The position numbers and the translations under genes are program-made. The notes beneath the pieces were generated by a model. The model searched no databases. It was not told the DNA's origin and saw only the letters and a list, made by a program, of their open reading frames with translations. A stretch of 64,000 nucleotides of DNA from Takakia lepidozioides. Lineage: Eukaryota; Plantae; Bryophyta. The stretch lies in NCBI GenBank assembly GCA_030704615.1, contig CM060732.1, positions 9,486,001-9,550,000 on the forward strand, written 5' to 3'. Shown in pieces: positions 12,532 to 50,610 of the stretch; positions within the stretch are counted from its first letter, which is position 1; the number at the start of each line of letters is the position of its first letter.

Positions 12532-13257
12532 TGTCGCGGCCCTTTGCTTTGAGGGCAGGGGGGTCGGGACACAAGAGGGGCTGCCCCTGTGGTAGGGGCA
12601 GTCGCAACAATAGGTAGGGGGGCTGAAGCACCCTTGAGGGCCCAAGGCACTCAAGGAGGCGAAGGCACTTACTAGGTGGAGCCCCGCGCACCGGGTTGCG
12701 GTGGGGGTGGTTCCACGAGGGGTGGTGGTAGCTTAGTGGGTCTTAGTGGGGGTGACATATGACTCACCATGGGGCGGAGACCTTGTGGTAGGAGTCGTGG
12801 GGAGTCTTGGGACTCATCACGGTCCATTGGGGCCGTGGTGGGTGAGCCAAGATTCACCGCGACTCATCACCGGGAGTCAAGGATCTTCGTGGTGGTTCGC
12901 CATAAAAGGACGGTGTTGTTTGTGAAACCCCCGCGGACAGTCACAAAACTATATATAGGGAGTAGTAACCTCGAGAACGGTGCAAGCCCATTGGTGACCA
13001 AAAACTAGTGCGTAAGCGTGCGAGCTGGAAAGCGACCAAGGTGTGGGGAGCTATTCCGGACTGCCAACAACCAAAGGGAATTTTCACTAGGCCCAAAGTG
13101 AGTGAGGGTCTTGTGGAGGAGCAAAGGGGGACCGTTATGTCCCGGTGAACAGTCGAAGCTCCGAGTTGGCCCGGCGGCCAGTTTGGGAGTTAGGCACGCG
13201 CATCAAAGCGAGTAATTATGACTTGAAGAGGAGCTTACTGAAGTGATGTGCGCGACT
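12532..13257 (+). repeat. 5' LTR of Gypsy B
   Basis: Starts TGTCGC and ends GCGCGACT (terminal CA mutated); its last approximately 280 bp match 33073-33352; TATA-like TATATATAG at about 12950. Confidence 0.9.
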
Positions 13258-13259
13258 CT

Positions 13260-13271
13260 TCGTATCAGAGC
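13260..13271 (+). promoter_or_regulatory. Primer-binding site, initiator tRNA-Met type
   Basis: TCGTATCAGAGC, one mismatch to the canonical TGGTATCAGAGC, 2 nt after the LTR. Confidence 0.85.
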
Positions 13272-13405
13272 TTAGAGTTCAGTACGCGATCGTCCTTGAG
13301 ATTGGCCTCACCATGGGGTCGGGCAAGACAAAGTGAAAGCAGAACGGCCCAAAAGACAATGATCCTGGTGAGCTCGGTGGGGGCGACGTGTCACCGAAGC
13401 GGCAA

Positions 13406-14412
13406 ATGGAAGAGGTGATTTATGCTTATGAAAGCAAAGCCACTCAAGAACGGGAGGAATTTGGGGAGTCGGAGCCCGAGGACTTTCCAGAGGCTCCGCC
13501 AGACCAACAGATGCCTCCCATGCCAGCAGCCTTTTGAGAAGGGTTGTTGGCGCAGTTTGGCGAGACGTTGAAAGACGTGATGAGGGCGGCTAATGCCACT
13601 TCCACTAAGGCGAAGTTTAAGGTAAAGCCTAAGGAACCCGGCACCTTCGAGGGCGTCTGAAATCGGAAGACACTTAACACCTGGCTCTTGGAGCTGGAGC
13701 AGTACTTCCGGGCAGCCAAGTTGAGTGATGAGGATCGGGTGGAAGTGGCTCCTACCTATTTGAGAGGCTATGCTCAACAATGGTGGCAGAAACGCCTTCA
13801 TGACCAAGGTCCAAACCCAGAAACCTTGAGCTGGAGTAGGTTCAAGGAACTTATGAAAAGACAGTTTGTGCCCCTCAACGCGTCTTGGCTCGCCCGGGAC
13901 AAAATGAGGAATTTGAAGCAAACGGATGACATTCGGGGATATGTTCATGCTTTCAATGTGCTGTTGCTTGAAGTCACGGATATGGCGGAACCAGAAATGG
14001 TCTTCAACTTTGTAGCGGGACTGGCCCCATGGGCCAGGCGGAAGTTGGAAGAGAAGCCACCTAAGACTGTGAACGAGGCAATTGAAAGGGCTGAATGTGT
14101 CTCGGATGTCCCTAGGGGCGAAAGACAAGGCCGTACGGAGCTGAACCACAAGAAGGCCCGACGAGAGGGTGACTCCTTCCGACCGGAAAAGAAGTGGGAT
14201 AGGCCACGCGGCAACAATGACACATGGAAATCGAAGGGAGGACCTTCACACGTCAAAGCGGCACTTGGTGCTCCAAAAGAAAAATCAGGTGCGGCGGCTT
14301 ATGGTGGACAGAAGACGACCTTCGATGGAGTGTGCTTTAATTGCGGGGAGCCCGGGCACATGGCTAAGAAGTGCGCAAAACCCCGACAATTGAACATGAC
14401 TCAGGCGACCAC
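13406..14412 (+). pseudogene. gag: Gag of Gypsy B, interrupted by the CACTA insertion
   Basis: KPKEPGTFEG, WLLELEQYF, LRGYAQQWW, LKQTDDIRGYVHAF, zinc knuckle CFNCGEPGHMAKKC; two in-frame stops upstream of 13688. Confidence 0.92.
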
Positions 14413-15009
14413 CACTAGTACAAATTAACGTTTTTATGACTACGGGTGATATAAACCTTGGTTACCATGACTATATAGGTGACTACAGAGTGACGAAACC
14501 CATTGTTGGACGAAATTTAATATATTGTAATCTAATGAAGTCATACATATTACTACATGACTAGGAGCCACGGTAAAACATTGTTGACCAAGAACAGAGG
14601 CTTGGTTTATATAATTAGTAGTCATATGCACTACTACACGTCAACAAGTGCTACATAAGCTTATGACTAAATGACTACACCATTACTACACATTGATGAC
14701 ATGCCATAGAAGCTTATGACTACATGACTACATGGGTTTCACAGCTCTGTTTATATGCGACATCACTACACGTGGCATCTTAAGGCATATACATGAATGG
14801 GTTCATCCATTGGATGACCTCATCCATCTATCTTTAATAAAGCACTTGAGTCATTGGATGACACAAAGTGCAAAAAGTTAAAAAATTCAAAAAGTTTTTT
14901 TAGGGTTGCCCACGTTCAGCCGTGAACAGAGGGCTGGAACTTAGCCTCCTTTTGTCTCCCGTGCTACGATCAGTTTTGTTTTCTTAGTATCGAGCCGAAG
15001 CAGCGACAA

Positions 15010-15945
15010 CTTGTGTCATGGAATGCCATGATCGCATGATATGCAATACAGGGGTGTGAGATAGAGGCTTTGAGACCTATTCTTGAGCAAATGATGTAGG
15101 AAGGGCGAGGATATGCACATCAGGGGCATGGTATAGAGGCTTTGGAGACGTATGAGCAAATAATGTGGGAAGGGGTGAAGCCGGACCGGGTTGTGTTTGC
15201 AATGCGTGTGCGGGCCTAGCAGTCCTGGAAAAGGGTAAAAGGTCCATGGTGCCATTGTCAAATTTGGAATTGTACCCGATGTCATTCTGGACAATACCCT
15301 CGGGGACATGTATGCCAAATGTGGCAGTATTGAGGATACAAATGGAGTGTTTGAGAATATGGCTGAACGAAATGTCGTGTCCTGGAGTGTGATGATCGCT
15401 GGATAATCCCCAGCATGGATGCGGGATGGAGGCATTGGAGACCTATGAGCAAACGATGCGGGAAGGGGTAAAGCCAGACCCAGTCACGTTCGTTTGTATA
15501 TGCAATGCGTGTGCGAGCCTGGCAACCCTGAAAAAGGGCAAAGGTGACATCATCAGAGCTAGAATTGTACCCGACATCATTCTGAACAATACACTCGTGG
15601 ACATGTATGCGAAATGTGGGTGCATCGAGGATGCGAAGGGAGTTTTCAACAGTATGGCTGAACGAGCCCGACCACATCACGTTTGATGGCATTTGCAATG
15701 CATGTGCAAGCCTAGCAGCCCTGGAAAAGGGCAAAGAGATCCATGGTGACTTGTTAGAGCTGGAATCGTACCCGATGTCATTCTGAATAGTACTCTCGTG
15801 GACATGTATGCAAAATGTGGGTGCATCGAGGATGCAAAGGGAGTGTTCAATAGTATGGCTGAACGAGATGTGGTGTCGTAGAGTGCGATGATTGCAGGAT
15901 ATGCACAGCAAGGGCGTGGGATGGAGGCTTTGGAGACCTATGAGC
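15010..15945 (+). pseudogene. PLS-class pentatricopeptide repeat fragments
   Basis: Repeated NTLVDMYAKCGCIEDAKGVFNSMAE, EALETYEQ..EGVKPD.VTFVCICNACASL; many stops and frameshifts. Confidence 0.92.
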
Positions 15946-16513
15946 ACCTTCTTCAACACATTTCAGCCTGTTTTCCTTGTTATCAGAGTCGTCCCTAAAA
16001 TTTCAGGTTGAATTCTGCAAGTTAGCTCTTTGGTGCAAAAAAGTGAAGGCCTGTTGGAAGCGCAAGTCAGCATATGAACTAGTGTGATAAGTAGGGTTAG
16101 GGTGTTTGCTGGAACAAATCTAGGCTGTCATTGTCAGCTGCTAGGAGCAAGGCAAGGATGTGTGCATGATTTGTGCAAAGGCAGAGATAGCTGAAGGAGC
16201 AGGGATAGAGAGTGGGTCCAGATTCATCCAAAAGGGCCAGATTTCAAGCACAAGATTACTTATGATTCCCTGTCATTTGTGTTATTCAAAGCACTTACAA
16301 GGCACAGTGGGGAAGACATCATCCATTTCAACTTCAGTTTCTTGCTGTTTGTGGGTGTGACCACTACTAATGGACAGACTTTACTTACTGCAGGATGGGA
16401 GGATATGGAAGAAGAGACTGGCAGCAAGTGCCAGACAGAGGGTTGAATTTACCAGTACCATGCGAGATAATGATCATACCTTGTTCTATAGCAATGTTCC
16501 TCATCGTCAATGC

Positions 16514-16830
16514 TGTCAAGTTATTTTACCACTAGTGTGAAACTAGCTAGGAAATAGCTAGCTTTTACATATTGACATTTGGGATCGGCCCAAGTGTCAA
16601 TCCAGGGGTCAAGGCAGATTTAGGCCCTGGAGTGGTTATCTTCACGGCAAGCGCGGGAGGCTCATCTTTCTCGAGTTGAGCCTCACCGCGCCTAGCTATG
16701 GCGCCGTAGTGTGGATTCCCCATGGCGTGGGGTGCACTTGGCTTGACTTGTATTTGAGTGATGAGGTTATATATGCACGAGTTTATGCTTCAGATTTGTG
16801 AGCTCGTGCTTGTATTCTTCTTCTTTATCA
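16514..16830 (+). repeat. Repeat A1 (317 bp; 3' part of the LTR)
   Basis: Matches 27633-27949; I see one mismatch (GGATCGG versus GGATTGG). Confidence 0.95.
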
Positions 16831-16842
16831 CTCGAGAAAGAT
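16830..16842 (+). promoter_or_regulatory. Putative self-priming PBS
   Basis: ACTCGAGAAAGAT is the exact reverse complement of 16664-16676 (ATCTTTCTCGAGT) within repeat A; no TGG-started tRNA PBS is present. Confidence 0.75.
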
Positions 16843-18259
16843 CAACTCGTATCTGTGAGTGCCAGATACGAGTTAGTTGTAGCACTTGTGGTTTTTGCTT
16901 GAGAATGAGAGAAACCAAGTTGTTATGCAAGGAGCACCGTGGAGCTCTTAGTTGTTAGAAGCGGAGGCGATGTGGGTTACGAGGTGGTAGACCTTGGCAT
17001 TCGATCTTCAGCTTCAGAGATGAAAGCACCATGCTGCAGGTAATTCCAGAGCACCTTGATGGTTCCAGATTGTGTACATGCATGAGCAAGCACGATTGGG
17101 AAGAGGACCAGTCAAGAGCAGGTTATAGTGGCTTTGGTGGCAAAGCTGAGAACTGGACTTGGGAATGCGAGCTTTCATTGTGTGAAGGATTGCAAGACCA
17201 AGCGAAAGGGCTGATTTTGCTTGGGGCAAATCAGTGCACTTTGTGGAGTATGGTGAGATTGGGTTTCAATCTCGAGCTTCAGCATTGAGAGGGCTCTTGT
17301 CATGGCAAGAGCAGGGTTGGAACATGAGCTAAGAGGTGCGGCAAGGCCATGGAATGTGCACCTAGGGTTTCAGAGCTTGGAAGAAGAGCTCTTGCACCAC
17401 AAGAGAAGTGTCTTGTGGCTGGAAATGTAAGCCTTAGGGTTTCAGGAGCTTGGCAAAGGCTGTGGAGTGCTTAGTCTTGTCTTAGAGAGCATCAAGGAGC
17501 CAAGGAGCCAAGATAGGGGGCTGATATCTCTTGTGTGAAGAGGTTGCATGTGTGGAGCATGTATTCAGCTCATTGAAGCTTCCATCTTCAAGCTTGGAGG
17601 GCAAGCAAGGAAGAGGGGGCTGGTTTCCCTGTAGGGCATGTGGAGCATGCTTTCAGCCTGCTGAAGCTTGTATTTTCGGGTTTGTGGGTGCAAGAAATGA
17701 AGCAAAGGAGCTGATTCTCTTATGGTGAGAGTGGGGCATGTGTGGAGCATGCCTTCAGCCCATTGAGGCTCTTGTTTTCAAGCTTTAGAGAGCTAGAACG
17801 GAAGGTCTAGGGCTGGTTTCCACTTGGAGTGAAAGAAAAGCACTTGTAGGGCCTATGTGAGTTGGGGTTTCAACTTCAAGCTTGAAGGGAGCGCAACTCT
17901 TGAAGCAGCAGGTGTAGGGGGCTGGAATAGGCTCTAAGACAGATGCTATGGCCAAGGAGAGTGCTTGAATGAGTGCTCACAAGGGCTGGGAACCAGCAGG
18001 GCTTGGTTGTTTGCCATTGAGTTTAGTGGCGTGTTTGGGGAGGCTAAGTGAGAAAGAAGGCTTGGTTTGTGGCAACCACCTCATGGCTTAGGGCTACTAT
18101 GGTGGTGTGTGGGAGCCGAAAGAGCAAGAATACCTTGCTGATTTCCTCACAGCCGCCATAGCTCGGTGGAAAGAAGCCTAGAGTCCAAGAGACACAAACC
18201 CTAGCTTGGCGTGGCTAAACCCCTTGGAGAAATGGCTAAACTGCCAGAGCGGCCATGGA

Positions 18260-19200
18260 TGGGGCTGTGACGGGCTGTGCCCATGGCCTTTGGGGCTGTG
18301 ATGGGCTGTGACGGGCTGTGACAGGCTGTGCCCATGGCCTTTGGGGCTGTGATGGGCTGTGAGGGGCTGTGACAGGCCGTGCCTGAGGCCTTTGAGGCTG
18401 TGACAGGCTGTGCCCATGGCCTGTGGGGCTGTGACTGGCTGTGCCCAGTGGCCTGTGGGGCTGTGACGGGCTGTGAGGGGCTGTGACAGGCTATGCCCAT
18501 GGCCTTTGGGGCTGTGATGGGCTGTGAGGGGCTGTGATAGGCCGTGCCTGAGGCCTGTGGGGCTGTGACGGGCTGTGCGGGGCTGTGACAGGCTGTGCCC
18601 GTGGCCTTTGGGGCTGTGAGGGGCTGTGACAGGCTGTGCCTGAGGCCTTTGAGGCTGTGACGGGCTGTGAGGGGCTGTGACAGGCTGTGCCCATGGCCTT
18701 TGGGGCTGTGATGGGCTGTGAGGGGCTGTGATAGGCCGTGCCTGAGGCCTTTGAGGCTGTGACGGGCTGTGACAGGCCGTGCCTGAGGCCTTTGGGGCTG
18801 TGACGGGCTGTGAGGGGCTGTGACAGGCTGTGCCCAGTGGCCTGTGGGGCTGTGACGGGCTGTGCGGGGCTGTGACAGGCTGTGCCCAGTGGCCTGTGGG
18901 GCTGTGACGGGCTGTGAGGGGCTGTGACAGGCTGTGCCATGGCCTTGGGGCTGTGAGGGGCTGTGAGGGGCTGTGACAAGCCGTGCTTGAGGCCTTTGGG
19001 GCTGTGACGGGCTGTGAGGGGCTGTGTCAAGCCGTGCTTGAGGCCTTTGGGGCTGTGAGGGGCTGTGAGGGGCTGTGCGGGGCTGTGACGGGCTGTGACA
19101 GGCTGTGGCGAGCTGTGACGGGCTATGAGGGCTGTGACAGGCTGTGCCCAGTGGCCTGTGGGACTGTGACGGCTGTGACCAGTGAGCTGTGTGGGCCTGT
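18260..19200. repeat. About 10-bp-period GGCTGTG minisatellite in the 5' leader of element A
   Basis: Dozens of variants of GGGCTGTGAC/GGGCTGTGAG/AGGCTGTGCC. Confidence 0.97.
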
Positions 19201-20084
19201 GCTGGTCTGTGGTGGCCCGTGTTGACCTATGGACGGCCTGTGCTGACTTGTGGAGGCACTGGTGGACTGCCTAAGGACTGGCATATGGTCTGGAAGGCCG
19301 AATTTTGAAGCTCGTGGAGGGCGGTTTGAAGAGTATCTTCATGATATTCCCATGGTCATGCAAGTGAGGGAGAGAGGAGAGGAAGAGTGTTGGGATGAGG
19401 GCATGCTGGGGTTAGGCATTGCTTTAGCTTCTCTTCCTTGTAGTTTCCACCCTCTCATTAGGCCAAGACCTTTCCGTAGGTGGAGGCAAGAGTCAGTCCG
19501 GGTTTGGGCTGGGGTGTCCTTGCAGGAGCAACACCGTGGAGTTGTTTTTTGGTGTGGGGAGTTGTCGTTCTGATTTCTTGTGTTTGGATCCCCTCCATAC
19601 CTGCATGCTTGACTGTGCGCCATGCTAGTTTTGTTTGGGCGCTTGTTTTTATAGGTGATTGGTCCGGATTTGATCACCGGCCAGTCCCTAGAGCATGCTG
19701 TCGATGTGAGGCTGGGTGACACCAGCCAGCCCTCTTGGTTTCTCTCTGTGGTCAGGAGAACCAGCCACCATGTGGTCTAGGCTTGCTAGGTGGATGACCA
19801 TTCAGCCAACATTTCTAGCTTGCTTACCCATGGTAACTATTTAACCATACATACCATAACAGGTTCTCTACCCGGTTACCTTGGAGAGGGGGTTAGGGAC
19901 ATGTTCATGACCGGTTGAGTGTCAACACAGAGGTGCCACTAGTTGCTGGGGACAGTGCCGGTTCAAGCACTAGCGATACTAGTGGGTACACGAGACGAGG
20001 TGTGCGGTTTAGGCCACCTTCACCTCTTGTGTCTTCACGGAAGGTTCTGATTCGGATTGTGAATCAGGAGGACTCATACCGGCG

Positions 20085-21680
20085 GTGCAAGTTGTTTCTT
20101 TGCCATTGTTGTGGGACACAATGGAGGAGATGTATGGAGCTACCAAGGGGCCACGAAGGTACTCTGGGGCGGTGGGCACCATCGAGTTGGATGATTTTAT
20201 CCAAGAGTTTGATAGTTGGTGTGATTTGCAGCAAATGCGCAATCCACAACTATTTACGCCTTTCATGGCATGGAAGGGGTTATTTCAGCACCTTGAGGGG
20301 CCGCCTATGGATGATTATCATGAGTTCAGGCGGGGGCATGAGGTTGAGATCGAGGAGTGGAGGATGTACTGGTCACCCGACTATGTCTCCATCACTAGGG
20401 CACTAGAGCCACGAGGGCAGTGGCTACACCTGCCGCTGCACCGGCAGCTTCAGCAAGTAGTAGAGGGACAAAGGACTAGTGGTACAGTAGCTACGACGTC
20501 CACCCAAGCCACTACCGCACCAGCACTAGTACCCGTGCCTGCCTTCAACCCTGTTGTGGAGTTCTTCGAAGAGTTGAGAGGGAACTACCAAGGGGTGAGG
20601 ACAGAGAAGTTGCGGAGCTTGCAAGAGTTCCAACGGAAGCCGACCGAGAGCTTGGGGAGGCTTTCACTCGCATGAGGCGCTTGATAAATGTAACCCAAGG
20701 GGTTACGGAAGCTCAGGCAGTCCAATTCTGGTATGGGATATTGGACAAGGAGCTGAGGAGAAGGGTGCGGGATGCAACTCTCCTACAAGCGGCCCAACCC
20801 ACCTTAGCAAATGTGGTTTTTGCTGGCAGAGCGGATAGAGCTCAACATGGTGGAGGAACGAGTGGTCATGGTGGGATTTGCTAAGGAGACACCACGGGGT
20901 AGTGGTGCTCCTAGCCAACCACTACCTCAACGTGCTCAAGGCAACAAGGAGGCTGAGGTAAAGCTCAGGGAAGGGCAGAGAGGACCTCAGATGCAGGGGT
21001 CTCTCCCTTCATTTGCTGGCCAACAACGGGCGGATGTGGTGTGCTGGACATGTGGAGGACCCCATATCAAGAAGGATTGCCCAGAGGGAGGCAAAGGGTC
21101 GGCACATGCACAGCCTGCACAGTTGCAGTGTGGGCATTGTGGCAAGCACGGGCATGGAGAGGCCCAGTGTTATGGTTTGCATCCTGAGTTGCGCCCAGGC
21201 CAGTTCCAAGGGAACAATGGTGGCCGGGGGCGAGGTGGAGCAGCCCAGAGAGGACGAGGTGGCCAGCCACGAGGTGCAGGCCAAGGGCAAGCTCAACGTG
21301 GCCAAGGACGCGGAGGTCAGGGTGCTGACCAAGGCATGGCCAACCGGCTTCAGCAGCTAGAGCAGAGGCTCGCTGCTATGGCTACAGCTCAGGTGGTATC
21401 GGCTCTAAGGCCGGATGGTCCACCTCCTGCTCCTGAGGGAGGAGATATGGGAGGCATGGGATTCATGTGTGGAGCAGCACTACCACTAGTGCAGGTGGAG
21501 TCTGCTGCAACCGTGACTCGAGGAGCAGCACGAGTTCCTGAGCCACGAGGTGCAGAGGTGGAGTTGGATCCACAGCGTGGGGAGGCAAGCCGTCAGGCTA
21601 GGCTTCCTCAGTCATTCACATTGGCGGAGACAGTGTCGAGGCGGAGGTTACTATGCCATTGGGGAGAGCTACACGGGTAG
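20085..21680 (+). pseudogene. gag: Gag of element A (frameshifted)
   Basis: PRRYSG...LDDFIQEFDSW, LQEFQRKPTESL, knuckles CWTCGGPHIKKDC and CGHCGKHGHGEAQC, RGG-rich tract. Confidence 0.85.
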
Positions 21681-21989
21681 CACCACTACCTAGTGTTGCC
21701 AAGGCTGCGGCTGCTAGTGTGCTGCTAGGAGCGGCCACATCTGTATGTCAGGCTCCATTGTTCTCGGCTACCATGATTGCGACGCCGGGGGTAAAACCAG
21801 TTGAGGTGTTCAGGCTGGCAGCTACACTCTGTGAGAGTGGGGAGGTTACTTCATCTTCTGCGGAGATAGTGGGAGGTGTAGTGCCGGAGGGATCCTCGGA
21901 TTTGAGGGTCAAGACAACTACGGCGGCGCCATGGCAAGCTGCAGCTGCCAGGTTGGTGGAGCTGCCAGCTAGGCCAGCCATTGAGTGCG

Positions 21990-22420
21990 CCATGGTGACA
22001 CCTGGAGTTGTCATGTTAGACAACCAGGATGGCATTTTCTGTTTGAGTGGACCGGCATGCAAGAGGTACCGGCCACTGCGGGTCTTGTTGGACTCGGGAG
22101 CTCAGCCATTGATGCTGGGCAGAGCTGCTATTGCAGGCTTGGGCCTCACGGAGGCGGATATGGAGCCTTCTCCTTTCCAGATACAGACGTCTCTGGGAGG
22201 ATCGGAGCAGGCTCGGGGCATGACACGGCGTGAGTTGGCTATCAGACTACGGCCGGATCACCTATAGATGGCTCAGTGATGCGAGCCAAGGCCATTGTGA
22301 CAGACGCAGTCTCATACGATGTCCTGGTTGGTGGGGCAGTGTTGTACCCCATGGGCTTCACCCTGGATTTTTGGGAGGAGTCAGCTTCCTATAGGCCTGC
22401 ATGGCAGTCAGGGGAGGGCC
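21990..22420 (+). pseudogene. Aspartic protease of element A
   Basis: RVLLDSGAQ catalytic motif and downstream YDVLVGG. Confidence 0.85.
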
Positions 22421-22788
22421 AGCGTGTGCAGCTCCCTGTGACGTTCATAGGAGGAGTTGCGGTTGCCCAGCGAGGCAAGATGCCGACACTAGCAGCATTC
22501 ACAGTGGCAATGAGTTGGCCTAGAGAGTTGCTTGAGGGCAATGCTCATTCAGAGGATGTACCACCTCCGGGAGAGTAGGATGACATGTATGGTATGGCGG
22601 AGTTGCCTACCATGGTTGCTCAGACTCCATTGTGGGGCACGAGCAAGGATTTGCAGCGGGATGCTGATCGACGGGTGCAACAAGCCTGGGTGGAGGCTTT
22701 TGTACCGTCAGGAGAGGAGGAGAGTGTGGGGATTGCACCACAACCACCTCAATTGTCTCCATTGGACACCACACCTATTGTGTGGTAG

Positions 22789-23760
22789 TATCCGGATGAA
22801 GGCATTTGTCTTCTGGACTTGTTTGGCGGGATCAGCACCGGATTGGCTGCTGTGTTACAAGCAGGTGTACGAGTTCGGCGTTACTTGTATGTAGAGAGGG
22901 ATGAGACTGCACGACGCATTTCACTTTGCCATGTTGCTCAGTTGGTGCAGCGGTACCCTGAGTTGTTGTCGGTGTCTGCAATTCGTGGACATCAACAGGC
23001 CTTGCCAGCAGACATTTCGTTGTGGGGGCGCAGGATTTGGAGCGGGTTGGCTCCATTGATCTGGTAGTGGCAGGTTGGCCCTGCCAAGGGCATTCATCAG
23101 CGGGGCATGGCAATGGATTGCGAGACTCGAGGTCGGGTCTGTTTTGGGAGATGGTGCGGGTTTTGCGCCACTTGCAGCTTCATCAAGCTATATCTCCAGC
23201 ATACATCTTAGAGAATGTGCCACTGATGGGCGATTCTCGGACCAGGGTGATGGCCAGTGTGCATCAAGTCCGGTCGTGGCTTGGGTCAGCAGTGTTGCTA
23301 GACGCAGCTACAGTGGGGTCACGGGCTCATCGTCCACGGCTATGGTGGACTAACTTGATGCCACCCGCACTGCTCAAGCGTGCATTTGATGGGGTGCAGC
23401 GGCCAGCACATCTCACAGTGGATAACATTCTGGACACAGGGAGGCAGTCTCAAGCGTGAGACACGATGACCGTTCACCTTTGGCAGTGGTCAACAAGGTG
23501 GGTCAACCACGAGCAGCATTACCTACACTGCTCAGCTTCCCAGGATCGCATGCTTTCCAGGATAGTGGACCTGGCCTCCTGTGGGATGCTCAGTTGCAGC
23601 AGTTAGTGGAGCCTAATTCTGACGAGCGTGAGCGGGCAATGGGTTTTACCACTGGTACCACGGCGGTGTCGTCTCTTTCTGAGGCATCACGGCATCAAGT
23701 GTTGGGGCAAGCAATGGATCTCAATTGCTTGACATGGATTATCTGCTTGGCTTTGGCTGA
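22789..23760 (+). pseudogene. C5-cytosine DNA methyltransferase domain (DNMT3/DRM-like, canonical motif order) within pol
   Basis: Motif I LDLFGGIS (22813-22836), II YVERD, IV DLVVAGWPCQG (PC at 23079-23084), VI ILENV (23211), VIII AHRPRLWWTN, IX ERAMGF, X RHQVLGQAM; frameshifts near 23020 and 23455. Confidence 0.95.
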
Positions 23761-24179
23761 GCAACGCAGAGTGCGGAGTACACTTCCCTCAATGGTCTCT
23801 CTGCCTACCGAGACGGTACATGCAGTGAGTGGGGGCGAGCATGTGAGGACCGCGGGGTGCATGCATCCATGGCACACGTGGGAGGTGCTCGAGGTTCAGA
23901 GGGAGTTGGCAGCCAAGGCGGCTGTGATGGATGAGGTTGGGGATTCTTCTCGGGTTGAGGAGGTCCTCAAGGATGAGATGATGGGGCAGGATGAGGCCTT
24001 GTCATTGACTGAGCAGGCAGGGAGTACTGCTCAAGAGGTTGCAACATAGCAACCACTGGACGCGTCCTCTACCTCTAAGCCCACTGGACTTAAGGTTGCA
24101 ATTACGGAGGACAATTGGGAGCCTGACATTGGACCCATTGTCACCGGAGGAGAGAGACGACGTATACGGCAATTCCTGA

Positions 24180-25545
24180 GGGCTTACAAGAATTGCTTTG
24201 CCTTCAGTTTGAAGGACTTGAGAGCACTGAAGGGTCAAGAGATCCGTATTGAGTTGGCCACTGACACGCCAATCTTTCGGAGACCCTATAGATACAGTGA
24301 CATGGAGAGGTCTTTGATTCAGATGAGGACTCAAGATCTCTGGGAGGCAGGTTTGGTGGAGCTCTCTGGGGGAGAGTATGCTTCAGCCACAGTGATGCCA
24401 GCCAAGAAGGATGTCTATGGCAATTAGACGGAGAGACGTATGTGCGGTGATTACCGGCCTGTAAATCGTCAGACCAAGTCCGATAAGTATGCCATGCCAA
24501 CACCAGATGAGATCTTTGATGCCATCGGGCATGCTAAGGCCTTTAGCACTTTGGATTTACGATCCGGATATCACCAGTTGCCAATCAAGGAGGCGGACAA
24601 GCAAAAGATGGCATTCTGGGGGATCAATGAGCACGGCAAGGATTGCCTATATCAGTGGCGGTTCTTACCATTTGGGCTTAAGAATGCTCCTGCAGAGTTT
24701 CAGAGAGTCATGGATAGGATTCTAGCAGGGGTGGACTTTGCTCGGTGCTACATAGATGACATTATCATCTTTAGTGTTACGATGGAGGAGCATGAGAGAC
24801 ACCTTCAGGTGGTATTGGAGCGCTTGAGAGCGCACGGATTGAAGTTGCATCCGGGAAGTGCAAGTTTTTCCACAACCAGATTGAGTATCTGGGTCACATG
24901 ATATATCCTGGAGGATTGGGGGTACAGCAGACTAAGGTAGAGGCCATTGCCCAAATTCCACGCCCCACGGATGTGAGCCGAGTTCGAGCTTTCATGGGGT
25001 TGGCAAACTATTATAGACGGTTTGTCAAGGGATTTAGCACCATTGCAAAGGCTCTAACCAAGCTGACCAAGGTGGACCAGGAGTGGCAGTGGGAAGATGA
25101 GCAGGAACGAGCTTTTCAAGAGCTCAAGGCGAGGTTGACCTCGGCGCCTATCTTGAGACGACCTATCAGGGGGCGTCCCTTTCAGCTGCATACGGATTGG
25201 AGCATGCTGGGGCTTGGAGCGGTGCTCACACAGGTGGATGATGAGGGAAGAGAGTTCGTAGTGGCTTATGCTAGCCGCTTGAACAACGCTGCAGAATCTA
25301 AGTATAGCTCATATGAGGGGGAGTGCTTAGCTGCAGTGTGGGCCGTGGCACACTTCAGGTGCTATCTATACGACAATCTTTTCAGCCTTGTCATGGATCA
25401 CCAGCCACGCAAGTGGTTGATGGAGTCAGACAAGCTTACGGGGAAGCTTGCACGGTGGGCACTTATACTCCAGGAGTATGACTTTCAGGTTGTGCATCGA
25501 CCGGGTTTGGTCAATCGGGATGCGGATGGATCGAGTCGCAATCCA
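24180..25545 (+). pseudogene. pol: Reverse transcriptase and RNase H of element A
   Basis: RMCGDYRPVN, LDLRSGYHQ, PFGLKNAPAEFQR, YIDD; RNase H LHTDWS..GLGAVL, EGECLAAVWAV, RDADG; stop at 24425 and frameshift near 24855. Confidence 0.97.
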
Positions 25546-25929
25546 TGCATGAGCCAGCAGGATGACACTGGAGCTCGGTGGCATGGTGAGACGGACGAGG
25601 AGATGGTGCCGGGATGGCACGCATCTGCATTTTTGTGTATCTTGGCATCGGGAGGTCAGATTGGACCTACAACAGGGATGACTGTAGACGGAGTGTCTGA
25701 GGACCCTAAGGCTAGTGATGAGCTAGGTGGTGCCAGAGATATACATGAGGATTCGGCTGTGTTGGACTACCTCCACATGGGAGACACGGCAGCCATTGTG
25801 ACTGCCAGGGAGAGGGGTCGGATCCTGCAACGAGCCAAGAGGTTCAAGTGGGATGGGATACACCTACTTCAAGTGTGGGAGGATGGTCGGGTGAGGATTG
25901 TGCCTCACCCCACACAGCGTGCACGGTTA

Positions 25930-27182
25930 GTGCGGCATGCCCATGAGGAGTTGGGGCATTTTGGAGTGCGACGCACTCACAGTTTACTGCAGGGGCAGTA
26001 TTGGTGGCGTGGTATGCATACAGAGGTGCAACAGTTCGTGGCTAGGTGCATGGTGTGTGACAGGGTGCGTGCTTCATTCAACGCCCCTACACCACAGTTG
26101 CATCCTTTGCCAATCATGGGATTGGGCTACAGGTGGAGTCTTGACTTCGCAGGACCGTTGCCACTGACTATGCGCCACCACAGATATGTGTTGGTGATGG
26201 TGGAGCACTTCTCCAAGTGGATTGAGTTGGTTCCATTGCCTGACAAGGCTAGTGAGGGGGCTGCGTATGCATTCTTGGATCGTGTGCTTAGCCGATTTGG
26301 TGCTCCAGCTGAGGTACTCACGGACCAAGGGAGAGAGTTTTGGGGGAGTTTCAGGCTTTGTGTGATAAAGCCTTGATAGACCACCGCACCACTTCTCGGG
26401 ATCATCCTGAGGCCGATGGCTTAGCAGAGAGAGTTGTTCAAACGGTGAAGAGGGGTTTGCGCAAGTATGGCTTGCAGAAGGGACACCTAGGAGATTGGGA
26501 TCTTCAGGTTCCTTGGTTAGCCATGGGCTACAGGTTCAGCAAACAAGCATCACTTGCCTCCTTCTCACCATATTTCCTTCTCTTTGGCCGAGAGCCGGAT
26601 TTGCCTGCAGCCATTCGTAGGGACACTACTCAAGTCTTTAACCTTGACGATCCGGACGTGTGGGTACGTGCATGTGATCAGCATGCAGAGTTGTTCAAGA
26701 AAGTCATGCCCATGGCTTTTGAGAACCTTGCCATTGCACAGCACCGTGATACGTTGAGGTATGCCACTATACGTGGTGGAGGATATCGTCCTGGGGTTCG
26801 GAGGTTTAGCCCTGGTGACTATGTTTATTTGCAGCAGACTGCTCCTACGACTCTAGATGTTACTGCAGGGCGTGTTATTCTGAGGGTTCGAGAGGTGTTG
26901 CCCTCAGGGGTCCTGATCTTGGAGGGTCGGGATGGCATGACTTGGAAGGACCATGTGCGTAATTGTGCGCCATGTCACCTTCCCAATGTCGATGGCAGAG
27001 TTGACCCAAACTTGGCAGTGGTACCTGCAGGTTTGAGGTGCATGCTCTGTGGGTCTGCCAAAGGGGCAGCCACCATGCTGGTGTGTGATCGATGCTCAAG
27101 GGGTTGGCATATGGGATGCTTGACACCACCTCTTGAGAAGGTTCCTGACGGAGATTGGTTGTGTCCACACTGCTTGGGATAG
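25930..27182 (+). pseudogene. DDE integrase with C-terminal PHD finger, element A
   Basis: HEELGH...CMVC zinc-binding domain; WSLDFAGP, LTDQGREF, AERVVQ; C4HC3 CMLC..CDRC..WHMGC..WLCPHC at about 27039-27173; frameshift near 26340. Confidence 0.95.
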
Positions 27183-27431
27183 TGGCAGTGGACATGACTG
27201 GAGGCAGCTAACAAGACATGGGAGGCCAAGCTCATATGAGTCAATACATGAGATCCCAAGCTCAAGTTCACAGGTTGCAAGACGGCGACTAATGATGGGG
27301 CAACTCTTGCACCCGGCCTCTTGATCTATCGAGTTTGAGTGTAGTAGGGATAGTGGTGGAGGACTTAGTGAGGCTATGGTCACTATCACATCTTGTGGCT
27401 ACCTGGACTTAGAGGGACCTAAGCACCAGCT

Positions 27432-27440
27432 AGGGGGGCG
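27432..27440 (+). promoter_or_regulatory. Polypurine tract of element A
   Basis: AGGGGGGCG followed by AT and then TG at 27443. Confidence 0.7.
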
Positions 27441-27442
27441 AT

Positions 27443-27949
27443 TGTGTGGACTAGTGACTGCCATAGTGGGCAGCATAGTGGCAGCCTAGTGACTGACTAG
27501 TTGTAGCCTAGTGGTTGGACTAGTGGCTGGACTAGTGGTGGACTAGTGGTATACTAGTGTATGGTGTGCACATGTGTTGTGTGGTTTTGGACAGCGATGT
27601 AGTTGTGTAGCGATATGTATGCGCACGACAGCTGTCAAGTTATTTTACCACTAGTGTGAAACTAGCTAGGAAATAGCTAGCTTTTACATATTGACATTTG
27701 GGATTGGCCCAAGTGTCAATCCAGGGGTCAAGGCAGATTTAGGCCCTGGAGTGGTTATCTTCACGGCAAGCGCGGGAGGCTCATCTTTCTCGAGTTGAGC
27801 CTCACCGCGCCTAGCTATGGCGCCGTAGTGTGGATTCCCCATGGCGTGGGGTGCACTTGGCTTGACTTGTATTTGAGTGATGAGGTTATATATGCACGAG
27901 TTTATGCTTCAGATTTGTGAGCTCGTGCTTGTATTCTTCTTCTTTATCA
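27443..27949 (+). repeat. Complete LTR of element A (B1 + GC + A2, 507 bp, TG...CA)
   Basis: Begins TG 2 nt after the PPT and ends TTTATCA; palindrome GACAGCTGTC at 27627-27636. Confidence 0.85.
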
Positions 27950-28138
27950 TTGTGTGGACTAGTGACTGCCATAGTGGGCAGCATAGTGGCAGCCTAGTGA
28001 CTGACTAGTTGTAGCCTAGTGGTTGGACTAGTGGCTGGACTAGTGGTGGACTAGTGGTATACTAGTGTGTGGTGTGCACATGTGTTGTGTGGTTTTGGAC
28101 AGCGATGTAGTTGTGTAGCGATATGTATGCGCACGACA
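27949..28138 (+). repeat. Repeat B2 (190 bp)
   Basis: Matches 27441-27630 with one visible mismatch; ends GCACGACA. Confidence 0.95.
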
Positions 28139-28348
28139 ATGCCGTGGCCCTTCCGGCGAGACATTTTTGCTTCTAGCGCACAGCGCTCCTGGACATGTAT
28201 TGCACAAATCTTTGGAATAAGATGCATCATGTTGTTGTTAATGGTGTAGGGTTTTGGTTGTGAATATTTGTGTATGAGAAATATACGATACGATGCTAGG
28301 GATATAGTGCAGTCGATGTCATTTTACTGCCCAAATGACAAGTCAAGA

Positions 28349-28889
28349 GCCGGAGCGCAGATCGATCCGGCTGAAATACTTCGCTCCTGCCAACCGATCG
28401 AAAAGGTCGTCGATCCTTGGCAAAGGGTACCGGTTTTTGATAGTCACCTTATTCAAAGCCCTGTAATCGACACACATCCGCAGCGTCCCATCCTTCTTGT
28501 CTGCGAATAGCACCGGGGCTCCGTAAGGTGACTTACTCGGCCGGATGTACCCCTTTGACATTAGATCTTTGAGCTGAGTCTTCAGCTCGACCAACTCTTT
28601 GTGGCTCAACCGGTAGGGCACCTTGGCAGGCGGTTCCGATCCCGGTATCACCTCAATCTTGTGGTCAACTCCTCTTCGCGGTGGCAAGCCGCTTGGTAAA
28701 TCCTCCGACATCACATCCTGGTATTTCTCCAAAATCCCCTTGATCCAATCTGGGCTCGGCTCCCCATCGCCTTCTCTCTTCACTTCTCTAATGTAAAGCA
28801 AAAACTGGGGCTCGTGTGCCTCCTCCACGGCCCACTCCCTTACTGACAGAAGGTTTATTCGCCCTCCCACGGGTTTGGGCGTTTCCGAC
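28349..28889 (-). pseudogene. pol: Inverted Gypsy pol (RT N-terminal) fragment of family B
   Basis: Homologous to 32471-33010: [27 protein letters not shown]...[11 protein letters not shown]. Confidence 0.92.
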
Positions 28890-29912
28890 TGAGGCATAGG
28901 TAGTTTTGCTTTAACAAGGATAGGTTGAAGTTAGGACAGATGTGTTGCTAGTATAATAGCTAACTTTCAAGAAATCGATGAACTGAGATTGATTGAATAG
29001 ATAAGTGCGGGCTTTGATTGTTATGGTTGTGTTAGGAGTGTGCTTAGGCCCTTCAGCTTTTAGCACTGTGTTTATTGCCCTTTAAACATCTGTTCTGTAC
29101 ATGCAGGTTGAGAGTGGGGAGGAGCTGCTGACACACAGTAGTACCCACAGTTGTGGAGTAGAGGCACAAACGGCCCTCAAACATTGTCAGAGGCCAAGAG
29201 ATAACGCGACAGAGAGACATGTGCAGGGCTATCCACAGCTTATGGAGTACCAGCATGGAAACATGTAAGAGACTCATTGTGGTTTATTCCTTGACACAAG
29301 ATCAAGGACAATGTGGTGAGCGCACCTTCTTCAACCTTTTGGCAGTCTGTTTTGCCCTCTCATCATTAGGGTTGGGGTATTTGCTGGAAGAACTTCACGC
29401 TGTCAGTATGAACTGAAGGACTGTCAGGCAGAGATAACTGAAAGACTAGGGATACAGGTCCAGATTCATCCAAGAGGACCGGGTTTTAGATGTAAGATTA
29501 CTTCTGATTCCCTGTGGATCAATAGCTACAAGAAATCTGCGTGGGTAGATGGTCAACTGGAAACATAAGCGGCAGCAGCACAATTGATAGAACAAGGCAC
29601 TGCTATTGAAGGCACCTTCAACACATTTCAGCCTGTTTTCCCATGTTATCAGAGTCGTACCTAAATTTTTGTGTTGAATTCTGCAAGTTAGCTGGTTGAG
29701 TGAACCTTTGATTGTTTGGAGTGATTGACATGATACGGCCAACATGTGACAACAGGGAAGTTTCCAGAAACAGGTAACAGAGACGCTCAGAGAAGTTGTG
29801 GAATGGATACTTTTCTGACCACAGTCATCAATGATGGGACAATTGAGGCAAAAAGGTGAATACCTGTGGGATTACAGAGAGTAGCAGATGCAATAGGCCA
29901 ATGACCTAGGAT

Positions 29913-30496
29913 CAAATGATGGGGGAAGGGGTGAAGCCCAACCACATCATGTTTGTGTGCATTTGCAATGCATGTGCAAGCCTGGAAGCCCTGGAAAAGG
30001 GCAAAGAGGTCCATAGTGACATTGTCAGAGCTAGATTGTAATTCTGAAGTACAATACCCTGGTGGATATGTATCCAAAATGTGGGTGCATCAAGGATGCA
30101 AAGGGAGTGTTCGATAGTATGGCTGAACAAGATATGGTGTCATGGAATGCCATGCTTGCAGGATATGCACAGCAGGGGCGCGAGATGGAGGCAAGACCTA
30201 TGAGCACATGATGGGGGAAGGGGTGAAGTGTAACCAGATCACGTTTGTGTGTTTGCAATGCTTGTGCAAGCCTGGGCAGCCCTGGAAAAGAGCAAAGAGA
30301 TGCATGGTGACATCATCAAATCTGGAATTGCACCTGTCATTCTGAACACTGCCCTGGTGGACATGTATGCCAAATGTGGGTGCATTGAGGATGCAAATGG
30401 AGTGTTCGACAGTATGGCTGAATGACATGTGGTATTGTGGAGTGATGATTGCAGGATATGCATAGCAAGGGCGCGGGATGGAGGCTTTGGAGACTT
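29913..30496 (+). pseudogene. Second block of PLS-class PPR fragments
   Basis: Same motifs as 15010-15945 (EGVKPNHIMFVCICNACASL, LVDMYAKCGCIEDA); frameshifted. Confidence 0.9.
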
Positions 30497-31054
30497 AGGG
30501 GCAAATGACAAGAAGTTGTGGAATGATTACTTTTCTGACCCCAGTCAATGGTGGGACGACTGAGGCAAAAAGGTGAATGCCTGTTACATTTCAGAGAGTA
30601 GCAGACGCAATATCAGCATAGGAACTAGTGTGATAAGCTGAGTTGGGTGTTTCCTAGACAAATATAGGCTGCTGCTAGCAACAATGCAAGGATGAATGCA
30701 TCATTTGTGCATAGGCATGGATACCTGAAGGAGCAGAGATAGAGTGTGGGTCCAGATTCATCCAAGGGGGTCAGATTTCAAGCACAAGATTACCTATGAT
30801 TCCCTGTGGATCAATAGCTACAAGAAACCTGCATGGGTAGAATCTGATGGTCTATTCCGTGGGACTCAATCTGTCACTGAAGTCTTGCATTATGAGGATC
30901 AGAAATGCTTGGCAGCTTACCTGCACGAGGCCTTGACCTTTAGGCAATCCCCTGAGCAATAGTTGCGTTTGGGCTGCTATTGTATGTAGCTGGTTGCTAG
31001 TCCAGCACTTCTAAGGAGTTTTGATATATACTTCTATGTATTTGGGAGTTGGGA

Positions 31055-31330
31055 TGATAGTTCAAGGTGGGAGATCATGTTCGGCTACTTGATGTCAACA
31101 GCAAACGCACCAAGGTTGGATGTGGACTTTTTGTTGGTCTGCAAAGGAGCATGGTGGGTGACGGGTACCCTGTGGTGCCACTCCATTATGCTGCTATATC
31201 CATCAAAGAGGCAAGCATAAGTAATTCTCCTCTGAGAGAGTTGGGGCAGGTGAAACACCACAATTTGGAGCCTGAAGCTCCCGAAACATGATGCAATGTA
31301 GTTGAAAATATGCCACCGTGGTGATATATA
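31055..31330 (+). pseudogene. Possible CACTA TnpA-like C-terminal remnant
   Basis: VGDHVRLLD...KVGCG...VPLHYAAISI resembles the TnpA-associated domain; it lies near the 3' end of the CACTA element. Weak evidence. Confidence 0.35.
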
Positions 31331-31987
31331 AATAGAACTCTTCAATTGTAGGAGTACTAGTGGACTGCTGCCCCTATGTGGGCTTGGGTTTTTGGAACTT
31401 GTAGCTTTTGAGGCTTGGTTATTTATCCATGTGGCCTTTCAGGCTTCTTGATTGTAGAGCCTTTGTCGCATCCATGGGAACATTTTTCCCATTGGATTTT
31501 TGCAGTATGAGTGACATTCCAGAGACAATCTATGTATTTGTGTGAAATTCTTTCATTCAATTAAATATATTGCTTTGTATATTTAAACACATCTGAATAT
31601 CAAAACGATAAATAAAATTTACATGAAATTAATAAATAAAATAGCATTAATGGTTTTATAAACTAATTGAATAAAGACACGTGTTAGATGACCTACCATA
31701 ACCAGAACGAAGCTATAGTGATGGAGTCATATTTGTAGTCATGAAATATGCCACATGCTACCCTCAGTGATGTAGTGAGTAGTGATATAGTCATAAATGT
31801 AGTCATATACATCCATGGGGTCACACGTGTCTGCAGTGATGCCCATCACTTCGCACTTATCACTCCGCAGTGATGGTAGAACTGACTTCGTGTTTGTCAC
31901 TGCATAGTGATGTAGTCATAATCGCACTTATCATTGCAAATGTAGTGATATTTGCAGTCATAAAAACGATAATCTGTACTAGTGCAC

Positions 31988-33068
31988 GGAGCTGTCCGAA
32001 GATTCCATCAGCCGCTTGGTGGAAGCGGTGGTTGCCAAGACTTGCAAGGTAGACAACTACTCTTGTGAGTTGTATCAGGAGACTGGCCCCTTGCGTAAAT
32101 GAAGTCAGTTACTCTTCGTGAGTGGGATAATTTCCGGAACTAACGTGTCGCTGTTGGTGGACACAAGAGCGCCGCACTCCTTCATGACACCGGCAACGAC
32201 ACGGAAGCTGGGGCTCCCGACAAGTGATGTGGGGGCCTCTATTGAAGTGCGTTCTGTCAAAGGAGAACCACAACTGGCGACAAGGTTGGCATTCGATGTT
32301 CCTCTTCAGTTGGGGAGTTGGGATGGACGTGAGAACTTCACCATTTGCGAGATCAATGGAGTGGATCTCATTTTGGGGATGACCTTTTTGAGCAAATCCG
32401 GAGCGGTCATAGATGGCCACAAGAGAGTAGTCACGCTACCGTGTGGGGATGGTGGCAAAGTTTTACGGGTGTCGGAAACGCCCAACCGAGTGGGAGGGCA
32501 AATAAACTTGCTGACAGCAAAGGAGTGGGCCGTGGAGGAGCCACACGAACCCCAGTTTTTGCTTTACGTAAAACAAGTGGAAAGAGAAGTCGATAGGGAG
32601 CCGAGCCCAGATTGGATCAATGGGATCCTGGAGAAATATCAGGATGTGATGCCGGAGGATTTACCAAGCGGCTTGCCACCGTGAAGAGGAGTTGACCACA
32701 AGATAGAAGTGATACCGGGATCGGAGCCGCCTGCCAAGGCGGCCTACCGGTTGAGCCACAGAGAGTTGGTCGAACTGAAGGCCCAGCTCAAGGATCTAAT
32801 GTCAAAGGGGTACATCCAGCCGAGTATGTCACCTTACGGAGCCCCGGTGCTATTCGCAGACAAGAAGGATGGGACGCTGCGGATGTGTGTCAATTACAGG
32901 GCTCTGAATAAGGTGACTATAAAAAACCGGTACCCTTTGCCAAGGATCGACGACCTCTTCGATCGGTTGGCAGGAGCAAAGTATTTCAGCCAGATCGATT
33001 TGCGCTCAGATTACCATCAAATCCGAGTGGCGGAAGGAGATGAGAAGAAAACCGCGTGCAAGACGAGA
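31988..33068 (+). pseudogene. pol: Protease and 5' RT of Gypsy B, truncated by deletion into the 3' LTR
   Basis: LLVDTRA (DTG variant), [34 protein letters not shown]; CGAGA microhomology at the deletion junction. Confidence 0.93.
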
Positions 33069-33072
33069 TAAG

Positions 33073-33352
33073 GGTGCAAGCCCGTTGGTGACAAAAAAAC
33101 TAGTGAGTAAGCGTGTGAGCCGGAAAGCGACCAAGGTGTGGGGAGCTGTTCCGGACTGCCAACAACCAAAGGGAATTTCCACTAGGCCCAAAGTGAGCGA
33201 TGGTCTTGTGGAGGAGCAAAGGGGGACCGTTATGTCCCAGTGAGCAGCCGAAGCTCCGAGTTGGCCCGGCGGCCAGTTTGAGAGTTAGGCGCGCGTATCA
33301 AAGCGAGTAACTATGACTTAAAGGGGAGCTTACCGAAGTGAGGTGCGCGACA
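33073..33352 (+). repeat. Truncated 3' LTR of Gypsy B
   Basis: Matches 12979-13257; ends GCGACA followed by the TSD. Confidence 0.92.
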
Positions 33353-38246: not shown

Positions 38247-39177
38247 TGTTAGAGGGCTGCTTGGGACTTAGACGCTTTTACGGGATCTGTGGGGTACCCT
38301 TAATTTTTACACAGACTGAGACCAACAGGAGCCTTAGGGGTGACAGCAACAGGCTTTAGGGGGGAGATACACAGCCCGACACAGTCCATCACAGCCCGAC
38401 ACAGCCGTCACAGCCCGTCACAGTCCAACACAGCCAGTCACAGCCCGATACAGCCACCACAGCTTCGCACAGCCCTACACAGCCCGACACAGCCAGTCAC
38501 AGCCCGCCACAGCCTGATACAACCAGTCACAGCTCGGCACAGCTGGGGGACAGTTATCATTGGCAGGGAACAACGGTGGGGAACGACATCTGAAAAAGGA
38601 ACGTGTACTACAGGGATGACGGTTAGTTAGGAAAGCGGTTAGAACAGCTTGTAGGTAGAAAAAGCGAAGAGCGGGGACGTCTAAAAATCACTTCTGGGTG
38701 GAGGACTTCTGACATCAGGGCTTGGAAATAGAGGGGAGAGCACATCTCTGAGTGGAAAGATGAAGAGCACGGAGTAGGAGAAGTGACGATCTGTTGTTAC
38801 TTGATGAATGTAAGCTGTAGAATTGTAATGTAGAGTAGATTAGAGACACCATGGCTTCAGCCTGATACTTGATAGATATTAATTTGATACATACTTCATA
38901 CTCACACTGTGTAGAGAGACCTGAGTGAAGCTGTGGAATGAATGGATGGAACTTGATAGATTTATGAAGCAAACTGATACTTAATTGCAGATAGTAAGGT
39001 AACTCGCTAACATGAATGCGGGAAGGAGTACAAATAGGAAACACCCCCATGATACACTAGCTGTAGGTCATGACTGATTGTTCTGAGCGGGCTGAGTGCT
39101 TAGAGATTTCCAACTCTTCTATCTTGGAGTTCCCACCTCGGATAGCGAAGGGATGGGTGAGTAAAAGCCGCTCGACA
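38247..39177 (+). repeat. 5' LTR of element C (931 bp)
   Basis: TGTTAGAGGG...CTCGACA; near-identical to 50629-51514 except for minisatellite copy number and scattered changes. Confidence 0.97.
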
Positions 39178-39179
39178 TT

Positions 39180-39196
39180 TGGCGACCATACTGGGG
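39180..39196 (+). promoter_or_regulatory. PBS of element C (probably tRNA-Arg type)
   Basis: TGGCGACCATACTGGGG, 2 nt after the LTR; conserved in the copy at 60318-60334 (minus strand). Confidence 0.8.
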
Positions 39197-39788
39197 AACT
39201 GGGTCATGAACAACCAGATGTAACAGACATCTAGTGGGATCATGGTGGATGGAGAATTAAAGAATTTGATGTGAATCAAATTCCCTGTGAAACTGAGAAG
39301 GAAAGATTGTCCAAATGATTCTTTCAGAGGTTCTTGGAATTGCCAGACGGGTGTAAAGAAAACATTTTTAAAAGAGTGCATGATGCTGACCCTGAATGGG
39401 GTCTGGAGAAAGGAGTGATAAAGATTTATCAGCTGGCCTGTAGAGGAAGAGCTTTGGTTACCAACACAAGTTTATGTGATAGCATTGCTATCCATTAAGC
39501 GAGTAGAGTTTGAAGGCTGGGAGGAAAGAAAGGTGAATGTTTATACTCATATGCATGAAGAGCTTGTACTGGTAAAGAATTGGATTCCAAAGGATATTTT
39601 GTGGATCAAACTCACACCAAGAACAGCTTTCCAGACTTGTTTGCCATATGGTTATATGGTAATGAAGACTTCTAGTATAGCCAAGGGTGCCTTGAAGCTT
39701 GAAAGAAACCCAGGCATATACGAGAGATATTACAAAAGAGAGTTTTGGTTATTGCCACATTAAAAGAAATGAAAGACATGGGACATGA

Positions 39789-42138: not shown

Positions 42139-42141
42139 CTA

Positions 42142-50589: not shown

Positions 50590-50610
50590 ACCGTGAGGAC
50601 ACGGCTTTTT

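Follow-up and report, generated by a model that had tools for sequence, protein, structure and literature searches.

The window, by which we mean the whole stretch of 64,000 nucleotides of Takakia lepidozioides DNA that was analysed, contains a Gypsy-type retrotransposon whose repeats are split and arranged in the order A...B-A-B, with ATGC copies on both flanks which represent a 4-bp target duplication. Two full terminal LTRs are not found. The parts of the element outside the priming region are the following, with the two bases GC separating B1 from A2:

16510-16513, forward strand: left 4-bp target-site duplication ATGC, matching 28139-28142
16514-16830, forward strand: repeat A1, 317 bp, TG...CA, with a promoter part and an R/U5-like part
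18210-19211, forward strand: tandem-repeat array of 10/51-bp units in the 5' leader
20013-21680, forward strand: gag-like frames in pieces, with two Cys/His knuckles; tblastn homologues in L074, L098, L110 and L115, no Pfam match
21716-22440, forward strand: protease region with an LLDSGA motif, matching P0040 and P0018 (P0018 with the Pfam aspartyl protease)
22789-23740, forward strand: C5 cytosine methyltransferase (Dnmt) domain, frameshifted (PF00145, E 1.7e-13)
24047-24052, forward strand: in-frame TAG-CAA between Dnmt and RT, conserved, a likely read-through stop
24089-27030, forward strand: RT, RNase H and DDE integrase with two frameshifts and one stop in RT (PF00078, PF17917, PF17921, PF00665)
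27039-27173, forward strand: PHD finger at the integrase C-terminus, without a chromodomain match (PF00628, E 4e-11)
27432-27441, forward strand: polypurine tract (PPT); a G-run lies at the same place in relatives
27442-27630, forward strand: repeat B1, which begins at the PPT and ends in CACGACA
27627-27636, forward strand: palindrome GACA-GC-TGTC at the B1/A2 join, putative internal integrase site; the CA-NN-TG spacing is kept in relatives
27633-27949, forward strand: repeat A2, with a second primer copy (27783-27794) within a complete hairpin
27950-28138, forward strand: repeat B2, abutting the end of A2, a putative end-to-end junction of the cDNA
28139-28142, forward strand: right target-site duplication ATGC

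A1 and A2 differ at one of 317 positions and B1 and B2 at one of the 188 compared, therefore the insertion appears to be young. An earlier note on this DNA had spoken of an LTR. The repeat does exist, but it is only the A half of the split repeat, a split which had gone unnoticed. Tools which seek TG...CA LTR pairs would likewise take the A repeats as the LTRs and miss both B2 and the target duplication. That the order is a one-off rearrangement was considered and rejected, because the same layout is common to 11 distinct insertions.

The element apparently lies inside an older Gypsy fragment (12973-16273 and 29457-33351), in which the repeats of 15108-16273 resume at 29903-30807; its gag lies at 13661, its protease at 32103. 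A conventional Gypsy element with LTRs of about 0.9 kb, a TGG-type primer-binding site (PBS) and a 5-bp duplication occupies 38247-51514. Its extra ORFs after pol (47091-50589) have no Pfam match, and a related minus-strand copy extends from 61314. Related 10-bp CTGTG-rich tandem units are found at 18210-19211, 38370-38580, 45836-46306 and 60919-61188, that is in two unrelated Gypsy families and in opposite orientation. The ORF at 7403-8221 matches DUF4216 (E 4e-7), a domain of CACTA-type transposons.

The coding region comprises gag-like frames, a protease region, a C5 methyltransferase, RT, RNase H, DDE integrase and a PHD finger; the D-35-E spacing of the integrase was counted in the relative P0001. 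Because the window copy has at least five frameshifts and a stop within RT, it is either non-autonomous or mis-assembled. No chromodomain match was obtained in the window element or in four relatives, which carry the PHD finger instead. Our first idea, a tyrosine-recombinase element of the PAT/Ngaro kind (split-repeat elements of DIRS order), was rejected since the ORFs encode a DDE integrase: none of the 21 element ORFs scanned matches a tyrosine recombinase, while rve and H2C2 do match. An Rfam scan over 16300-28400 gave nothing meaningful (two matches, E 3.4 and 4.6) and no ribozyme.

The window element is a Dnmt- and PHD-carrying Gypsy of the KnitGypsy-Dnmt3 clade, with which it shares the C5 methyltransferase in a Gypsy Pol, the DIRS-like repeat order and the RT-RNase H clade. 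In KnitGypsy-Dnmt3 of Klebsormidium nitens the Dnmt likewise lies within the Gypsy Pol, and according to the Fig. 4c legend its repeats are arranged as in DIRS while its domains are those of Gypsy (de Mendoza et al. 2018, PMC5890265). The available text of that paper gives no priming or integration mechanism (PMC5890265), and our literature search found no account of priming, including self-priming, or of integration in this clade. Relatives from Marchantia, Coleochaete, Klebsormidium, Closterium, Tetraselmis and Chlamydomonas group with the window element in a single RT-RNase H clade, the Klebsormidium Dnmt-Gypsy proteins among them (30 of 66 rows, SH-aLRT 97), in a quick tree without bootstrap whose rows include no labelled Tf1 or Tcn1. 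One protein, P0042, appears from its domains to be a KnitGypsy-Dnmt3 copy. The window element is nearer to P0040 from Marchantia polymorpha and to the metagenome families than to KnitGypsy-Dnmt3, the Klebsormidium repeats being known from the legend alone.

The scans for relatives gave 80 metagenome and 74 genome-collection loci, of which the subset L067-L158 and L001 was analysed. Besides that of the window, three families could be mapped (F110, F083 and F147, each named for a member locus). The priming set consists of 26 distinct copies with A1 and the bases that follow it: the window, four of F110, 20 of F083 and L147, the latter a collapsed circular contig from a genome with only two contigs of the family. 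The repeat sightings L093 and L101 were dropped, and the families L079, L099, L076 and L115 stood outside the priming test. The contigs of L147 and L150 lie in a genome labelled as a cyanobacterium, where bin contamination is likely for this eukaryotic retrotransposon family; many other Gypsy matches in the prokaryote collection look alike. The viral collection held no close relative of the element (66 loci, best 42% identity), and none of the 78 viral loci with the 14-base palindrome pattern has an RT match.

An in-frame stop followed by CAA between Dnmt and RT is found in the window, in all seven F110-type loci (L067, L073, L074, L091, L098, L110, L119; one with TAA) and in L147; it is not at that place in five F083 loci. 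UAG-CAA is a leaky read-through context. Because the conserved stop and CAA resemble it, RT, RNase H, integrase and PHD finger are likely to be made by programmed read-through, as far as can be judged from the sequence.

The features of the priming region are:

16651-16691, forward strand: hairpin of 14 bp across the putative transcription start, its 5' arm upstream of the putative +1 (z -4.9)
16664-16675, forward strand: candidate self-primer, presumably the first 12 nt of the transcript, the start being taken from relatives; 12 of 12 pairs with the PBS, compensatory changes against L147, L110 and L096
16740-16749, forward strand: predicted partner of 16673-16682 in the fold from 16664, which leaves out the upstream arm; a similar segment lies in F110
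16767-16774, forward strand: TATA-like run named by the earlier note, not conserved in relatives
16831-16842, forward strand: PBS without TGG
16843-16875, forward strand: leader hairpin directly after the PBS (z -4.8); relatives, judged by eye, have none this strong

The window hairpin is as the earlier note had described it, a 14-bp stem with one bulge (16651-16664 with 16677-16691) and a 12-nt loop (16665-16676). It folds at -32 kcal/mol and none of 200 shuffles is as stable. The base 16664, which is the first of the primer, closes the stem and is therefore outside the loop. The 13-base perfect complement between 16664-16676 and 16830-16842, likewise claimed at the outset, is exact. In 20,000 Markov-resampled repeats compared with the zone 16828-16850 the longest complement was 12 bases (six times) and 13 was never reached. 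Its placement immediately after the LTR end holds for the site as a whole, but 16830 is still the last base of the repeat. Therefore we define the PBS as 16831-16842 and the primer as 16664-16675. The window has two copies of the primer 12-mer, at 16664 and 27783, and a single copy of its complement, at 16831. The bases 16842-16849, at the end of the PBS and just beyond it, are also complementary to 16672-16679 (the 3' end of the primer and the next bases) and contribute the 5' arm of the leader hairpin, a possible alternative pairing in the window's family only.

Across the priming set at least 10 of 12 Watson-Crick pairs between primer and PBS are kept in 20 of 26 copies. Measured against the shuffles of each copy, the pairing stands out in 17 copies (6/300 or better) but not in the other nine. 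In 24 of the 26, the 12 bases following A find their best complement 122-176 bases upstream, at the homologous site, ties being resolved in favour of this distance. The primer site is gone from L098, and L072 is a decayed copy. The PBS and primer letters differ between the four families and pairing is kept in each; between the window and L147 there are two changes in the primer, each matched by a compensating change in the PBS. In an alignment of 12 rows from the 26 copies, whose ends were chosen by complementarity and eight of whose rows are one family, 96.5% of the cells are paired. Ten of the 12 pairs change on both sides, so that the covariation which the earlier note had named as a check is indeed found. 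None of 500 shuffles scores as high and slid controls give 38-62%. Four PBS edges of F083 were re-anchored by a motif.

Because this alignment is anchored on the complement and comes mostly from one family, a second test was run on 20 F083 copies, anchored on the TATA. Pairing peaks at TATA+32 with a mean of 9.4 pairs, against a mean of 3.4 and a maximum of 6.1 elsewhere. Conservation drops beyond PBS base 12, at which 18 of 20 F083 copies carry the commonest base; at bases 13-16 it is carried by 8-11 of them. The control in which partners were swapped between families is not a clean one, as the window PBS finds 11 of 12 pairs in the L110 repeat and 10 in the L147 repeat. None of the 26 PBS 12-mers has a TGG-type start, in line with the earlier reading of the window. 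The neighbouring Gypsy at 38247-51514, used as a control, has such a site, as do four of four ordinary LTR loci, in which the self-complement does not exceed 5 bases. A de novo hunt for an 11-base complement upstream, in 14 loci without a mapped A1, gave AT-rich or isolated matches only.

The start site was approached through the relatives. All 20 F083 copies have a TATA 31-34 bases ahead of the paired A, and TATA-like runs at a similar distance are present in F110 (TATAAAG in L098) and in L147 (TATAG, 29 bases before the primer). The window copy has no canonical TATA, only TTATCT at -28. A distance of about 31-34 bases between TATA and start is typical of plants, therefore the primer is likely to be the 5' end of the transcript. 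A TATA-like site near 16767 had been offered as an alternative start downstream of the primer; the run TTATATAT is present at 16767-16774 but aligns with GTATGTGT-type sequence in the nearest family. Tf2 is known to use alternative starts (PMC5341516).

When folded from +1, primer and PBS pair in five of five copies tried; in the window, primer bases 1-9 pair with the PBS and bases 10-12 do so with a probability of at most 0.02. The Tf1 transcript pairs with its PBS through its first 11 bases, and RNase H cleaves it between base 11 and base 12 (PMC7175516). The window element has an RNase H domain and its repeat edge falls after primer base 12. On these comparisons the element probably primes reverse transcription with the first 11-12 nt of its own transcript in the manner of Tf1. 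The compensated pairing in four families and the fixed TATA distance in the largest of them support the self-priming independent of a tRNA which the earlier note had suggested. Transcription would begin at or beside 16664, leaving the 5' arm of the hairpin out of the 5' end of the RNA, and this end is predicted to fold back onto the PBS. If cleavage follows Tf1, RNase H would cut after base 12, and minus-strand DNA would begin at 16830.

What the hairpin does can be asked by comparing families. L147 has a 12-pair stem with a 4-nt loop, in which half of the primer is buried (z -6.3), the hairpin of L074 is weaker (z -2.2) and F083 (L096) has none (z +2.0). In folds which do not model pseudoknots, adding 25 upstream bases reduces the predicted primer-PBS pairing to 0 in the window and in L147, and the binding energy at the PBS changes from -19.5 to 0 kcal/mol (window) and from -17 to -5.2 (L147). 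In F110 and F083 the upstream arm scarcely alters it: F083 shows no such lock and F110 a weak one, its upstream bases lengthening the duplex to 17 pairs. Since the 5' end of the RNA would lack the upstream arm, which A2 contains, the hairpin likely serves, in some families and as far as these folds indicate, to hide the duplicate primer at 27783-27794 in the 3' repeat rather than to display the primer. The 3' copy is predicted to form the full hairpin and to be kept off the PBS until strong-stop DNA, whose 3' end matches the 3' arm of the hairpin, opens it.

The earlier note had instead proposed a pseudoknot or switch between loop and PBS. With an upstream start the hairpin would display its 12-nt loop and the loop would pair with the PBS before cleavage. 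The window alone would fit this well, as loop and primer nearly coincide, the stability of the stem is very high, +1 is not pinned down by a canonical TATA, and the folds leave pseudoknots out. However, half of the primer is hidden in the stem of L147, F083 lacks a hairpin to display it, the upstream arm abolishes the predicted pairing, and the TATA spacing of the relatives sets +1 at the first base of the primer. Moreover, a 12-bp helix within a 12-nt loop without a linker should strain the stem open. A loop-PBS pseudoknot is thus disfavoured by the conservation, and we hold display by the loop to be quite improbable. Slightly better placed, though still unlikely, is a primer supplied by the element in trans: the PBS would be bound by the 5' end of the other packaged RNA, or by a small RNA cut out of the 3' copy's hairpin. 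Covariation is blind to the difference between cis and trans and a stable hairpin covers the primer in three of the four families, but the folds from +1 pair in cis with high probability in all five copies tried, and F083 offers no hairpin to be processed.

The complement might also not be a primer at all, but an internal complementary region as in DIRS, or a DNA-level fold which helps the cDNA to circularise. The repeat layout, which is DIRS-like also in the Fig. 4c legend of PMC5890265, speaks for this. Against it, the site sits exactly at that edge of A which is found fused to the PPT edge of B, the position required for the end of a minus-strand primer, and its partner lies at the putative +1 and not at an end of the element. 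A target duplication is present, and a tyrosine recombinase match is missing from the 21 ORFs; we regard such a function as very unlikely. Least probable of all is priming by a host tRNA or tRNA half with an incidental self-complement. Plant Copia lineages do include cases of half-tRNA priming without TGG (PMC6317226), and ARAGORN found no tRNA gene in the 64-kb window with which the PBS could be compared. But four PBS sequences, each matched by its own repeat, would require four tRNA switches and four coincidences. Self-priming in cis from the 5' end of the transcript is the reading on which we build below.

The cDNA made by LTR-type reverse transcription is expected to end at the edge of A facing the PBS and at the edge of B facing the PPT, therefore the working LTR is B-gc-A, although the integrated copy reads A...B-A-B between its 4-bp duplications. 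These two edges are found joined at A2|B2. This junction is exact in the window, in four of four F110 copies and in eight of 17 F083 copies, and imprecise in the other nine, with gains or losses from 1 base to more than 200 (duplicates L068 and L113 dropped; L095, L099 and L150 unclassifiable). The A1|PBS edge, unlike the variable A2|B2, reads AAT|T in 18-20 of the 20 F083 copies. The inserted ends lie at the palindrome CA-NN-TG in every two-ended copy, and among 14 such copies the 4-bp duplication is exact in eight and one base off in five. As the integrated ends are not the ends of reverse transcription, integration from a circle is indicated. The simplest reading is that the cDNA ends would be joined into a circle (A2|B2) and that the DDE integrase would then make a staggered cut at the internal CA-GC-TG palindrome. 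Two observations do not fit this reading. The mirror form A-B-A...B, which a symmetric two-repeat circle should give too, was found in none of 25 insertions with A1 mapped. No full PBS was seen at A2|B2, whereas about 50% of Tf1 cDNA retains PBS DNA at its 3' end (PMC11042837). Apart from the A...B-A-B insertions there are four A...B-only copies (L098, L105, L122, L135), three of them with a target duplication, which could derive from a one-repeat circle or from recombination between B1 and B2.

Self-priming as such is already known from Tf1. Tf1 and Tf2 of Schizosaccharomyces pombe, Tj1, the Tf1/sushi group and the plant Tcn1 clade have the same Ty3/Gypsy domain order (PMC7175516, PMC4600332, PMC5341516, PMC6317226). 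As in the Tf1 group, the PBS of the window element complements an 11-12-nt stretch of the 5' repeat at the putative start and is not of the tRNA type. Unlike that group, the window element has a PHD finger and not a chromodomain, a Dnmt between protease and RT, and split repeats; a hairpin covers the start in three of the four families, and start and cleavage are here deduced by comparison. Because chromodomain and full terminal LTRs are missing, we do not file the element under the Tf1/sushi-Tcn1 chromoviruses. According to the portion of a plant survey available to us, self-priming is predicted for 12% of plant elements, and for Tcn1 and TAR only (PMC6317226). TAR is a Copia lineage, whereas the window element is a Gypsy. 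Phygy and Selgy, Gypsy elements of non-seed plants, share the 4-bp duplications but have a tRNA-type PBS (Trp 81%, Ala 90%) and no extra domain (PMC6317226). Elements of DIRS order (A-coding-B-A-B), such as SymbioDIRS-Dnmt3 (PMC5890265), have the same order and an internal B|A junction which matches the two element ends. The window element differs from them by its DDE integrase, protease, PPT, PBS and 4-bp target duplication and by the lack of a tyrosine recombinase match. In retroviral 2-LTR circles a palindromic circle junction likewise serves as integrase substrate (PMC4372172, PMC1180852, PMC1905944). There it represents a side route at the end-to-end junction, whereas in the window's clade the palindrome lies inside the repeat and the end-to-end junction A2|B2 is kept.

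We propose tentatively, and with slightly less than even confidence, that this green-lineage Gypsy clade has uncoupled reverse transcription from integration, the normal route being self-priming, a 3' primer masked by a hairpin, a cDNA circle and a DDE integrase acting on an internal palindromic att site. If this is true, the ragged ends of self-primed cDNA would stop mattering for insertion. The hairpin across the start offers a testable answer to the question how a self-priming RNA avoids its second primer copy. Self-priming matters here as it fixes the positions of the cDNA ends, which form a junction within the element, whereas the ends of the insertion are at the internal palindrome. Therefore the clade represents a natural test of circles as a regular integrase precursor, and whether a circle can be the regular precursor for an LTR-type DDE integrase is an old question for retroviral 2-LTR circles.
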